Positions 20,501 to 26,500 of a DNA stretch of 64,000 nucleotides are shown one piece after another. Location of the stretch: assembly GCA_965235115.1 (NCBI GenBank), contig OZ249436.1, positions 38,380,001-38,444,000 of the forward strand, written 5' to 3'. Source of the stretch: Laetmonice hystrix. Taxonomy: Eukaryota. Position 1 is the stretch's first letter. Every line of letters starts with the position of its first letter. A program made the translations under genes and the position numbers. A model generated the notes under the pieces. It searched no databases and was not told where the DNA came from. It saw nothing but the letters and a program-made list of their open reading frames with translations.

Positions 20501-23500
20501 CCACATTTGTTGGCTTTAGGGTCTACTTTTTCCAAATGACTATCCCAAGGCTATCCCCCCCCCAAAAAAAAGAAAGAGGCGAAATCCTCAAAGTAACTGC
20601 ATAATATTATAAATATGCTCTGATCTCATCTGAGAAGGTCTAAGCATGATTTAATGGGGAAGTTTTTAAAAGAGAGCGATCTAGAGAATTAGAGTGGAGT
20701 CAGAGAGATTTGGAAATATGATAGAGAGATATTCGCCTAGAATTTATATAACAGGTAAATTGTAATTTATTCTAGTATGGCGAGGGTCGTTATGGAGAAG
20801 GTCGTCCACCTTATAAACTTTATATTAGTTGAAAATGTTTGTTTGCAGCTCCGACTGTGTGCCCAGCGAATTACTGCAACAGCACCAACGGTCAATGTGT
20901 CATCAGTGACAACATTATCATGTGTCTCTGTAACCCAGGTAAACCGACTGTCGTATAATATATCTACAGATATAAAGTGAATCATGAAACGCTTTTTAAA
21001 AATTTCTGTTTATTTAAGCTGGTGTACAAGATCGACAACAAAGTGCCGGTGCTCTTGAGCAACCAGAGAACGTACAGTGTTAATTGGCTTGTAAAATAAT
21101 AACATAATTTATATGTACTATTTGTAAGGGAAGAATGTTTCTAGGTTCAGTTGGTTATAATGGTGGATGAATGAGCGAAGATGTTGGTTGTGTCAGTCTA
21201 TGCCAATTTTGATCTGAGAAACGTTTTCTTTTAGTATTGGAATTTGGAGTAGGTATTTATGACCTTCATGTCGAGGTGCAAGTCGTTCCAAGCAAGATTT
21301 TTAGTTTTAGTTGTTAGAATATTGATTGTTTATGTGAACATTAGAAACGAAAACAATGTTTCCCTTGTCCACGCAGGCTACACCGGGGATCGCTGCGAGA
21401 CGGACATAGACGACTGCGCATCGAGTCCTTGTTATTACAACGGAACGTGTGTCGATGGCACTAACAACTACACTTGTAACTGCCGTAACTGTAAGCGACC
21501 CATTCACATTGAGTGGAAACATTTTCAATCAATCAATCAATCAAGTTTATTTTCACATTGAGCGGAAACATTATGGAACTAAGTTGTCTACATATTAGTA
21601 GTGATTGCTACCATACCAAATTCTTTGTTTTTTTAAAACTTTCTTACTGGCCCTATAGTTCAGAATGGGAATCCCCCCCCCAAAAAAGTAAAGACAAAAA
21701 ACCCCCCAACAATATCACTGATTTTGCTGAGGACAGCTAAGGCAGTGATGGACTTTGTGTTTTGTAATACAGCATACTCTGGGCAGCGATGTGAGGTTGA
21801 GACCCAGCACTGTGCATCCAAACCATGTCTGAACGGTGGCATGTGTCAGGACCTCGACCAGGGTTACAAATGCCTGTGCCGGAAAACGGACACCTTCTCC
21901 GGGCCAAGGTAACGTGTCCAAGGCATTTCTCATAACAATTATGTCGGCTACAGATAGAGGACCGGGTATCGAAAGTTATTTTCTAGCCTATTTGGCGATT
22001 TTGAAGGATATTTTCTAATTTTATAGAAATGGGCCCGGCCCAACAAGTGTTGCCCTTGGCCTGTTCTTGCATTCGGCGGCCCTAGGAATGGCCAAAACTA
22101 TTTTTGTGCCATTTTGTAACCGATGGAGTGTAACGATTTTTTTTCTGTCCTTGTTTCAGGTGTGAGAACCGGACAGACATCTGTACAGTGAATCCGTGCC
22201 GTAATGGTGCCACCTGTCTGGAGGTTAGCGTCATCCGGCGTTCGTGTGCGTGTCGGCCTGGCTTCACTGGGGTTGACTGTGAGAACACTATCGGTGAGAA
22301 CGTCTGCTTCTACCTCATCATTCGCTGTCAAAACTACTCGTTAGAACATAGAGATGGAATGTTTAGAGTAGGGAGCAAAATATCGTCACAGACATCGATA
22401 GACTGGAAGCAGGGGACATGGTCTGTATAATTAAAGGACCAAAGGGGTTTGAATGGAAATATGGCGAATCGTAAACATTGGTGGCCTAAGACCGTACATA
22501 TTTTACTCATCATTGACCGCCCCATGCAGAGAGGGGGCATGACTCAATGCTCACCTATGTACGCTACTGTTGTTACTATCCGAGGTTGGGAAAGGGGCTG
22601 AGCTGTTTGTTTCCTGGGGGTTACCCGTCCAAAAATGACCCCACCAGTCTTTCTCCACGGCAGACGAGTGTGCCTCGAGCCCGTGCCTGTACAGCGGGGC
22701 GTGCCAGGACTTGGAGAACGACTACAACTGCTCCTGCCCGACCGGGTTCACTGGCAAACGGTGTCAGGTGCGACCACCGGCTGTGTGCGGCACTGGCGCT
22801 GATAGGTGCGGTCAGGCTGGGCGCTGTGTTGACGATTACCGATCTTCGACTGCATTCTGTGTCTGCAGCCCTGGCTTCACCTCAGGTAAGACGTTCTGTG
22901 GACTTAATCGGTGCTCTCTTCTTTCTTCGTTAATAACTCTGGCTGTGTATGGGACTTTTCCCCCTTCACTGGATTCTTCTTGACCTCTTTATCTGGGAAA
23001 GGGTTAAATCGTAAAGAGAGGCCCTATCGCTCCCCCACCCTTCTTCCCCTTCCTCGCTTTCACTGATAGACTTTCCCTCCCAGTTGAGAGATAATCTGAC
23101 TTTTTGATCACTGACCTTCAGATGAGTATTGGACACCATGGTTGAACGCCGACAGCCCAGAGAGTGGCGATGGAGACACTGAGTCAATCACCAACCACAG
23201 GGCGGTGAGTACCAGCGACAAGCCAAAAGGTTACAGCACGAATAGCACTGTTACTTCTTGGGCGTTCAAATAGCCCGATTTAAGCTTTAGGTCTTTGGCA
23301 GTGTCGGTTTGATTTATTTACCTTTACCAAACCATCCCTAAGTTGTCCGACTTGAAATCCTGACCTGTATTACCCCCTGCCCATACAGAAGTACGGCGTG
23401 ACGCTGTGTCAGGGGCGGGCCCCCAAGGACGTGCAGTGCCGACTGAGTCGAACCAAGAAGGCGTACGGTACGGCAGGGCAGGTGTTCGACTCGGCGTGTA

Positions 23501-26500
23501 CTGTCAACCACGGTCTGTTGTGTTACAACACCAACCAGACTACCAATAATAACACCTGTCATGACTACGAGGTCAGGTACCTCTGCGACGTCAAGACCGG
23601 TAAGTCGGCATACAAGGCAGTATTACTGTGGCTGCAAAGTACAAACATTCTCGGCTGGGGGATTTCGATCCTCGGGTCACAAATGTTGCTACTCCAGTCA
23701 GATGTTGCTACTCGGTTCGTCGATATCGATCCTCGGCTCGCAGATTTCGGTACTTGGGACATTGGACCCGAGTATCAAAATCTGCGAGTCGAGGATCAAA
23801 ATCGACGACCAGAGTAGCAACATTTTACCGGAGTAGTGAAATCGGCGAGCCAAGATTCGAAATCGGCGAGCCGAGTAGCAACATCTGGCCCCAGTAGCAA
23901 AATCTGTGATCGAAATTCTCCAGCCGAGGATGTTTGTACTTTTTGGCCACAGTACTACATGTCCAAATAGCAACAGCAACGGTAAAAACAACATCACCCA
24001 CCACAACCCGAGTCACCACGACCACCCAAATAACAACCACAACACCAACAACACAGAAGTACTGACAGAAGTGCTGACACAGAAGTGGGTCTCGTGGCCA
24101 TCTCACACTATGTGAAATACTTCTTGTGCCTTATAATTAGATCGTTTGTTTGTTTGTTTGTTTGTTACCATTGTCTGGTATATATGTTCCCACAGTAGGA
24201 GGGACCACGTGTATAGCAGAGTACGGATGTTCTGAGGACCACTGTCAAAACGACGCGACGTGTGGAGGTTCGCCCAGTGCATACACGTGTACATGTAAGC
24301 CTGGATACGAGGGACACGACTGTCAACATGACAAGGACAACTGTGAACCGGACCCCTGTCAGAATGAAGCTCGCTGCACGGACCTGGTCAACGACTACAC
24401 GTGTGCCTGCAGGCCGGGCTACGACGGTGGGCGAACTGGTTAACGATGCTGTGATTGGCTATACGATGCTGTAATTGGCTGTTTAGGCCAATCGCAGATC
24501 AACTGTTGCTACCGACTTGTATGCAGTGAAATGTAATCGACGCTATGCAATTCGAAATCTTAATTTATAACTTTGCAGGCTGTGGTATGCCTATATACCC
24601 GTGGTAACTTAAACCCCATGAAATGTGGTCTGAAGTAGGGGCCTAAAGATCCATAGCCCCGATCTTATTCCTAATCCCTAACCCCGGTCCCTACGCCTCC
24701 CAAAAACATATCCCTATCCCTATCCCTGACCTTAACTCAAACCCCTACCCAAAAGGTTTGTGTGGAAGCTACCATGGGGGAATAACCCAGGTTGTGTATT
24801 TGCCTTAGGTAAGAATTGCGAGCGTGACATTGACGAGTGTACACCCTCCCCGTGTGAGGCCCAGGGGACCGCCCGATGTGACGACTTGGTCGGTGACTAC
24901 TTCTGTCACTGTAAGGATGGATACACCGGCAGAAACTGCTCTGTAAGTTGGCTCGGACAGAGTCTGGAATTCCGCCTGAAGTGAAAGAAAAAATTGGTAT
25001 TTTTACTCTGGCGAAAATTTATCATTTCCTGAAATTCTTTTCTGTGCGCCCCCCCCCCCCCGGATCCGTGCCTACTTCTTACTCTCCTCTGGATGACCTT
25101 AGTCGGAATTAAGAACTTTAAAAACCTCTTAGTCGGAATTAAGAACTTTAAAAACCTCATTTTGAGCGATCAAAGAGAAAATGTTCTGATTTGTTCCTAG
25201 ATTGACATCGACGAGTGTGCGTCTCAACCGTGTCTGAACGGTGGCAACTGTAGCCAGACTGTGGCTGACTTCAACTGTCAGTGTGCTGCGGGTTGGCAGG
25301 GCAAACAGTGTGAAAATCTCACAGCTACCTGTACACCGCAAGTCTGCCAGAATGGGGGTGTCTGCTACAACATCTTCAATGACTACTTCTGCGCGTACGT
25401 ATACGTCGCTGTCACTAAGGAAAAGTTTTTCTCAACCGATTTTTAGAGCGTTGCTCTGATAACTATAAACTGAGAAATCTGTGGGGGGAAAATAAGTTCA
25501 TGAAAGGTTTTTGTCTTTCAGATGTACGCCGCAGACGTTTGGCCGTAACTGTATGCGAGCACCCGATATGTGTAACCAAAGTAACCCTTGTCAAAACGGA
25601 GCTGTGTGTAAGGATGAAGGGGGGATGGCTGGGTGTGCGTGCCCTACAGGTACGTAGAGCTCCGGGTCTTCTAGTTAACTGAATCATCATCAATGTAGGT
25701 ACTGTTTTCATTATGTAACTTGAATTCCAGCATTATTAGAGCTGAAATTGATTGTTCTTATAAAATTGAAAGCGTGATACAGTAATTTAGTTCAGTTAAT
25801 TAAAGCCTCACTCGTCGACAGCCGATCAGGTCCCTCATGATGCATAAAACATGCAATTATAAATATGTGTACATGTATTATATATTGTTTATTCGTGAAT
25901 TTTACAGGTTACTCAGGGCCTGGCTGCCAGTGTGAAGTTGATATCTGTAAAAACAATCCATGTAAGAACGAGGGAGAGTGTAAAGTACTTGGCCTCGGCC
26001 GCTACGAGTGCAAGTGTCAAGACGGTAAGTTCAACTTTGGGTCAACATCAATTCAAATATTATAACACAGATATCTAACCTGTATTTATGGGAAAAAGGC
26101 CCATGCATGTGTACGTATTGTATTATTATCAAATCGAGAGAACCAGAAACCACACTATATAATTGTTACTCTGACATAATATCAGGATATGCCGGTGTGA
26201 ACTGTGAGACAAACATTGATGACTGTACGGCTGTGCAGTGCCAGGCGCCTAGTCAATGTGTGGATGGTGTTAACGTCGCCTTCTGTGACTGCCCCATCAA
26301 CAAGGACGGACACACCTGTGATAAAGGTGAGACAAAACGTCTTATCAGCTGTCACACGACCATTGCAAGGGCACGGGAAATATTAGACAAAGGGTCCCAA
26401 GTTTAATTTATTCTTTTTGTATGATTGATTTGTGTGATAGTTATTGGATTTTACTGTTTGATTCAGTTTTGTGACAGTATGTGTACTAGAGGAATGCCTG

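Follow-up and report, generated by a model that had tools for sequence, protein, structure and literature searches.

A WxxW domain lodged within an EGF module encoded by an Uninflatable-like gene from Laetmonice hystrix

We describe here a 64,000-nucleotide stretch of the genome of Laetmonice hystrix (assembly GCA_965235115.1, contig OZ249436.1, positions 38,380,001 to 38,444,000 of the forward strand), hereafter called the window, which carries a large gene resembling the Drosophila receptor Uninflatable (Uif). Two exons of this gene encode a WxxW domain akin to the CysD domains of mucins, and they lie between the exons that encode the two halves of a single EGF module. We consider it probable that this six-cysteine, CysD-like domain sits in the last loop of the EGF as a predicted side branch of a Uif-like membrane protein, and that it is likely included constitutively.

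The host gene was modelled by hand (Table 1); no start codon was found in the model and its 3' end is not fixed. Its product begins with a C-type lectin domain, LDLa, three putative CUB domains, sushi repeats, two calcium-binding EGFs and HYR, continues with three Ephrin_rec_like repeats, LamG and, between these two, an array of 14 EGFs, and ends with HYR, many Ephrin_rec_like repeats, EGF, a hydrophobic membrane segment that was read by eye, and a tail. A Pfam scan of 30 exon frames of the 67-exon model matched lectin (below the cut-off), LDLa, sushi, calcium-binding EGF, HYR, Ephrin_rec_like, EGF and LamG (one piece below the cut-off). The putative CUBs were placed by end-to-end alignment to Haliotis asinina protein P0031, which has three CUBs and aligned from residue 1. 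The introns are in phase 1 in 50 of 66 cases, 40 of 66 exons are symmetric, and 39 of 65 adjacent exon pairs are frame-neutral.

The order lectin, LDLa, sushi, calcium-binding EGF, HYR, Ephrin_rec_like, EGF array and LamG is that of Uif, described in Drosophila as an apical protein that crosses the membrane once and contains C-type lectin, CUB, sushi/CCP, HYR and EGF units (PMC3340373, PMC12867482) and as apical in fly epithelia (PMC12867482). The EGF array corresponds one-to-one between the host and the Uif rows that were fetched. The two nevertheless differ: Ephrin_rec_like repeats are far more numerous in the host, paralogues have multiplied among the lophotrochozoan genes, and the host carries an insert at the sixth EGF of the array, a place where the loop is plain and 8 residues long in every one of the 12 ecdysozoan-clade Uif rows. 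Uif has been reported to contain two FA58C domains (PMC3340373); none was detected among the 30 host exon frames scanned, and among the 120 homologues listed below PF00754 is given for nearly all ecdysozoan Uif rows and for no lophotrochozoan row. The host is Uif-like by its sequence, and we do not file it as a strict Uif orthologue. Apical localisation and Notch interaction are, in the available portions of the sources, reported for Drosophila Uif only (PMC3340373, PMC12867482, PMC13178913). An earlier note on this DNA, which had recognised the inserted domain, missed the Uninflatable-like host, the conservation across phyla and the fact that the same loop also takes PAN domains.

The four exons around the insert (Table 1) all have AG/GT ends at the coordinates proposed in the earlier note. 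In the first of them Pfam places PF00008 at residues 2-32 and a partial EGF match at residues 46-72. The two middle exons, which we call the cassette, together make 294 nt, or 98 codons, with phases 1-0-1, and recomputation returned the same phase-1-bordered unit that had been described before; it separates Cys5 from Cys6 in the array's sixth EGF. The cassette was kept first in a 19-exon stretch and then in the 67-exon model, both free of stops. The encoded insert has six cysteines and two N-glycosylation sequons, and GC content at third codon positions (GC3) is 0.75 in the cassette against 0.65 in the whole gene model. The frame is open both in the four-exon form and in the form that skips both cassette exons, and skipping either exon alone shifts it into stops. 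The further claim that skipping both restores a normal EGF holds as to the open frame; the resulting Cys5-Cys6 loop has 11 residues, not the 8 seen in 12 of the 13 other array EGFs, and "skippable" here means frame arithmetic only. A loop of 10-13 residues at the sixth EGF is found in 16 of 21 insert-free homologues. Beside the cassette, the exon that follows it has a tandem acceptor, and the intron after the last cassette donor holds an element resembling a miniature inverted-repeat transposable element (Table 1).

Table 1. Features of the window, in window coordinates
Feature	Position	Strand	Details
Host gene model, Uninflatable-like	648..39300 (3' end approximate)	+	67 exons, at least 3,773 aa; manual, no stops
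Empty second slot: phase-1 intron interrupting the last loop (Cys5-Cys6) of array EGF 2	21491..21772	+	From model and profiles
Exon for array EGF 5 and for Cys1-Cys5 of the split module, EGF 6	22664..22885	+	222 nt, phase 1-1
Cassette exon 1: N-terminal section of the WxxW/CysD-like domain, with WTPW motif and acidic loop	23122..23204	+	83 nt, phase 1-0
Cassette exon 2: rest of the WxxW domain, all six Cys	23389..23599	+	211 nt, phase 0-1
Exon for Cys6 of the split module, array EGF 7 and the greater part of EGF 8	24196..24426	+	231 nt, phase 1-1
Tandem acceptor CAG-TAG-GAG, exon after the cassette	24193-24201		Acceptor starts 24196, 24199 and 24202, all in frame, each taking one residue off the split-EGF loop
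Element like a miniature inverted-repeat transposable element	23620-23958		Inverted arms of 51 nt at the ends (86%) and repeats of 61 nt within; lies 20 nt past the last cassette donor
THAP-domain stretch	9285-9617		E 1.3e-12; inside a host-gene intron
Calcium-binding EGF with long Cys5-Cys6 loop	12652-12846		Loop of about 35 residues
High-copy palindromic element	13540-14040		In an intron; bin depth above 100,000 in all three runs
SEA-like region	34296-35058		Three exons, by eye (GSVII motif)
Kunitz/BPTI exon	53498-53764		E 1.3e-20; belongs to another gene downstream
TTTTC-type microsatellite	54270-55930 (limits approximate)		About 1.6 kb

The identification of the insert as a WxxW domain, first made without a family search, is borne out by Pfam above the gathering cut-off. 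The family PF13330 (Mucin2_WxxW) matches cassette exon 1 at model positions 1-26 of 88 (E-value 0.003) and cassette exon 2 alone at positions 29-88 (E-value 3.3e-13; 50.6 bits, cut-off 22.4), so that the two exons tile the model, with WTPW as the WxxW motif at the N-terminus. Against the Protein Data Bank (PDB), exon 2 matched CysD chains of MUC5B, MUC2 and MUC5AC (E-values 6e-4 to 5e-3), and exon 1 gave a weak match to the N-terminus of MUC2 CysD1 (E-value 0.22). An Atlas search with exon 2 (features 0.92) returned only generic WxxW clusters and no structure, and a weak search of exon 2 against proteins of 124-2000 aa gave 2 candidates and established no homologue. A family profile run over the six frames of the window found no second WxxW stretch.

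With the CysD domains of MUC2, MUC5AC and MUC5B the insert shares the WxxW motif, the acidic loop and a DY motif aligned to MUC2 CysD1, and the small beta-sandwich fold of CysD is matched by the predicted models of its homologues. Its acidic residues align with those of MUC2 CysD1 that we take to be calcium ligands. It differs in having 6 cysteines where the mucins have 10, in five disulfides (PMC3195396, PMC11912381), and in its surroundings: mucin CysD sits in the PTS (proline-threonine-serine) regions of a gel-forming mucin built of VWD-C8-TIL units, the insert between two EGF halves of a membrane protein. The insert is CysD-like by predicted fold and departs from mucin CysD in two features, cysteine number and PTS context. 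CysD domains of MUC2 are described as non-covalent dimers with five disulfides (PMC3195396), and CysD1 as a two-calcium beta-sandwich required for MUC2 filaments (PMC7599080); MUC5AC CysD1 is reported not to dock as MUC2 CysD1 does (PMC11912381). CysD makes its appearance with Bilateria and is recorded from lophotrochozoan mucins (PMC4948705).

A search with one sushi exon gave 146 representatives, among them P0031, which then served as the query for full-length relatives (428 matches, 120 of them listed); a sushi region of P0031 as query gave only 5 matches. The sixth EGF was examined in 62 proteins, namely 52 of the 120 listed, 9 from other searches and the window model. Dropped before counting were P0210 (mis-mapped), P0075 and P0300 (Lingula models without flanking EGFs), P0181, non-Uif rows and the remaining ecdysozoan Uif rows. 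The 50 lophotrochozoan-clade rows hold at this loop WxxW alone (3), PAN followed by WxxW (23), PAN alone (3) or no domain (21, with 18 loops of 8-16 residues and 3 of 26-34). WxxW alone, at the same residue position, is found in the window, in Lingula XP_013405828 (P0206) and in record P0237. In 18 rows of our alignment A1, Pfam confirmed WxxW in 7 and PAN_1 in 2, and the other assignments come from profiles built from that alignment together with reading of the sequences. The window insert is 44% identical to the Lingula insert and 23-41% to others, and 26 inserts share family-specific residues, with conserved cysteine, tryptophan, proline and acidic positions. The same architecture and insertion site recur in lophotrochozoan Uif-like RefSeq proteins (Lingula XP_013405828, Haliotis XP_067672504, Mytilus, Littorina and others), most of them named "uncharacterized". 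PF13330 appears in the precomputed Pfam domains of none of the 120 listed rows, and the Lingula stretch alone scores 55.2 bits. The insertion is not private to the Laetmonice genome; its presence at the same site in brachiopod and mollusc relatives makes it likely both that it is old and that it is permanently included.

A tree computed without the insert residues makes the window the sister of P0237, with a Shimodaira-Hasegawa-like approximate likelihood-ratio test (SH-aLRT) value of 99, and leaves the deep nodes open. It contains a 29-row mollusc clade (SH-aLRT 99) in which 23 rows have PAN and WxxW and 6 do not, the latter at four separate places: Lymnaea with Biomphalaria, Nucella, Argopecten with Mizuhopecten, and one Haliotis paralogue. 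The cassette, missing at four places in one mollusc clade on this tree, behaves as a module in evolution. We suggest that one insertion into a phase-1 intron inside the Cys5-Cys6 loop of the sixth EGF would have occurred early in lophotrochozoan evolution, that a PAN/apple domain would have been added in front of WxxW in a mollusc lineage, and that several lineages may have lost the cassette cleanly; a single origin early in lophotrochozoan evolution is likely. Origin by exon shuffling, as previously supposed, would agree with the phase-1 borders and with the pattern of gain and loss on the tree.

The sixth EGF is not the only module of the array with occupants in its last loop. A PAN-like insert lies in the Cys5-Cys6 loop of the second EGF in Lingula, P0237, four Haliotis rows, Potamilus and Littorina, and in that of the twelfth EGF in Mya P0117. 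At the second-EGF site the window has an intron and no such exon, and a profile run over its six frames found no PAN-like stretch. A further PAN-like stretch (19-27 bits with our own profile) occurs in P0196, P0351, P0207, P0204, P0205 and P0212, upstream of the EGF array and apparently within the Ephrin_rec_like repeats. Separately, the 26-34-residue loops of P0226, P0211 and P0274 at the sixth-EGF site are free of cysteine and are possibly remnants of an insert.

The cysteines bear on whether the EGF is truly interrupted. The number of cysteines from Cys5 to the next EGF is 1, 7, 11 or 13, always odd, in 60 of 62 rows, the exceptions being P0185 (garbled model end) and P0198 (an extra cysteine shifts the count), and an odd count always leaves one cysteine over for Cys5. 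Four bivalve-clade rows have lost the first and last PAN cysteines together and kept the cysteine after the insert. It could be argued instead that the EGF is not interrupted at all, being a truncated five-cysteine module or one closed on a cysteine at the start of the insert, with WxxW standing between modules; in many mollusc rows the first PAN cysteine does follow Cys5 at an EGF-like spacing, and laminin beta LF is described as inserted after a truncated laminin EGF-like (LE) module that lacks the last disulfide (PMC5338690). We regard this as highly improbable, as in the window, Lingula and P0237 the next cysteine after Cys5 lies deep inside WxxW, and the odd parity, the paired loss of the PAN end cysteines and the EGF closure in two predicted models all speak against it.

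The first of these is an AlphaFold model of a three-EGF segment of Lingula (202 aa), made from an 18-row alignment that includes 4 insert-free rows and 3 window exons; its predicted local distance difference test score (pLDDT) is 82.7 and its predicted template modelling score (pTM) 0.56. The three EGFs in it can be laid over Notch EGF11-13 along 109 residues (root-mean-square deviation, rmsd, 1.7-2.4 A; Z-score 7.0-7.3), and residues 68-163 superpose on MUC2 CysD1 (Z-score 8.0, rmsd 2.5, 83 aligned). In this model the EGF rod stays straight, as in Notch, and the CysD fold projects from it as a branch. The second, of Littorina, was made from 10 insert-bearing rows and no insert-free rows (pLDDT 74.9); it matches plasminogen PAN (Z-score 10.3, rmsd 2.0, 71 aligned) and MUC5B CysD (Z-score 9.8, rmsd 2.9, 94 aligned), with a looser EGF tandem (105-109 aligned, rmsd 3.7-5.9 A). 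The EGF closes across the insert in both. We posit that the Cys5-Cys6 disulfide of the EGF would clasp both ends of the insert, in which case the neighbouring EGFs would pack as an ordinary tandem and the small beta-sandwich would point sideways; the host disulfide is predicted to span the insert and the EGF rod to be preserved. The cysteine parity and the predicted fold of the homologues agree with the domain-in-domain geometry proposed in the earlier note.

Insertion of a domain into EGF-like modules is already known, the precedent being laminin (PMC5338690). There, too, a globular domain lies in or at an EGF-like module, L4 within LE and LF after a truncated LE, and the rod is unbroken, as shown for LF and predicted for L4 (PMC5338690). 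This is different from what we describe: the laminin host is an 8-cysteine LE module, with L4 lying between its Cys3 and Cys4 (PMC5338690), the host here is a 6-cysteine EGF with the insert in the Cys5-Cys6 loop, and the cargo of the Uif-like loop varies (WxxW, PAN, both or none).

The earlier note had proposed that splicing may switch mucus binding on or off, and this is not supported by the evidence. Under such a scheme coordinated skipping of both exons would switch WxxW, and hence mucus binding, on and off. The skip-both form is indeed in frame, with an 11-residue loop resembling those of insert-free paralogues, and the clean absences of the cassette in relatives indicate that a short form is tolerated. 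The cassette is present in Babylonia P0192 and absent from its sister Nucella P0208, which could reflect skipping, loss or a gap in the gene model. In Mya, the slot of the second EGF holds a degenerate PAN-like insert in a GenBank model and none in three RefSeq isoforms. Against this, WxxW is kept in all 32 RefSeq isoform records at 11 homologous multi-isoform loci, with no skip isoform among them. Of 43 listed members of ten clusters that were compared with their representatives, all 35 that span both flanks agree with the representative in state, and the remainder do not reach this part of the protein. Five Logan records have contigs that exceed the coding sequence only slightly and are for that reason probably spliced transcripts; four of them carry WxxW. 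The cassette donors rank 0.93 and 0.95, within the top 7% of the gene, and the acceptors an average 0.63 and 0.42, among 59 modelled exons, a few boundaries of which were later corrected. Skipping a single exon leads into stops, and frame-neutral pairs are the norm in this gene, so that a frame-neutral cassette is no sign of alternative splicing. We find a regulated switch quite unlikely and consider that the cassette is likely included in essentially all transcripts, although rare or stage-specific skipping may occur. Skipping driven by RNA pairing was considered and rejected: the inverted-repeat element lies on one side only, and only 12-13 nt complementary arms flank the cassette.

The opposite extreme, in which the two exons would be a defunct pseudo-exon, a remnant removed from every transcript by splicing, is scarcely credible. 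No Laetmonice transcript was seen; the cassette is covered by contigs of three runs (one sample, one study) that are continuous with its introns, and since these pass through introns they behave as DNA and are uninformative on splicing. Against a remnant stand the intact frame, the six cysteines, the strong splice sites, the raised GC3, the 44% identity with the insert that Lingula has in this position, and the second-haplotype contig of run X1, in which none of the 7 listed differences falls inside the cassette.

It is unlikely, in our estimate, that the insert is a structural passenger or spacer that binds no particular ligand and is tolerated, kept because the loop accepts it and because it folds stably. 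Such an account would sit well with the four mollusc-clade places and the 21 of 50 rows that lack an insert, with the low identity of the inserts to that of the window (23-44%) and the degeneration of some, and with the analogous laminin L4/LF inserts, to which no function is assigned in the available part of the source (PMC5338690). The insert has nonetheless been kept in a brachiopod, in many molluscs and in Laetmonice with its conserved cysteines, tryptophans, prolines and acidic residues, and a cleanly losable two-exon domain of 98 codons would be unlikely to persist so widely. As the likeliest role, by analogy with mucin CysD, we tentatively suggest, with considerable doubt, that a calcium-stabilised knob might let an apical receptor bind secreted WxxW or mucin-type proteins in the mucus or the cuticle, or another molecule of the same receptor. 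A bolder version is very improbable: that the phase-1 introns in the loops of the second, sixth and twelfth EGFs are lophotrochozoan plug-in sockets, that a CysD-type WxxW hook anchors the secreted gel of mucus or cuticle at the apical membrane, and that coordinated skipping frees the tether.

Several points weigh against the interpretation of a constitutive, CysD-like side branch. The fold models are of homologues and not of the spliced protein of the window, their pTM is only 0.55-0.56, and the insert-free rows in the Lingula alignment may themselves teach EGF closure. The open deep nodes of the tree leave room for more than one insertion into the same intron. Degenerate inserts, with no intact WxxW motif or acidic loop, occur in several molluscs, which fits a weak or changing function, and CysD interactions are reported to vary even among mucins (PMC11912381). 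RefSeq isoform lists miss rare skipping, and for one of the clusters 15 of its 24 members were listed.

Other features of the window deserve brief mention (Table 1). In the host gene, the Cys5-Cys6 loop of one calcium-binding EGF is as long in P0031, P0206 and P0237 as in the window, a length that is presumably typical of Uif. The three SEA-like exons lie among the Ephrin_rec_like repeats near the C-terminus, and P0237 has a similar region; two separate exon pieces from it gave no Pfam match. If real, this region would be a cleavage module of the membrane-mucin type. The THAP-domain stretch is probably a transposon remnant.

In literature searches that were partly weak, largely without subscription journals and exclusive of supplements, we found no description of WxxW or PAN inside the Cys5-Cys6 loop of a Uif-like EGF; Fig. 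S4 of PMC4948705 may show invertebrate CysD architectures, and the available portions of PMC13178913 and PMC13425148 contain nothing on a WxxW-in-EGF architecture. We regard the arrangement as a real and conserved variant of a known principle, and one that is apparently undescribed. It indicates that the final loop of a six-cysteine EGF has room for foreign domains of 80-190 residues (WxxW, PAN, or the two in tandem) and that the rod apparently stays unbent. Within one receptor family such loop cargo has been gained, exchanged and lost over a long evolutionary span, which amounts to a natural design rule for decorating EGF rods. The absence of the WxxW label from all of the listed homologues points to a blind spot in domain annotation. 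A CysD-like domain on a cell-surface receptor is, finally, a candidate for how invertebrate epithelia may hold their mucus or cuticle.

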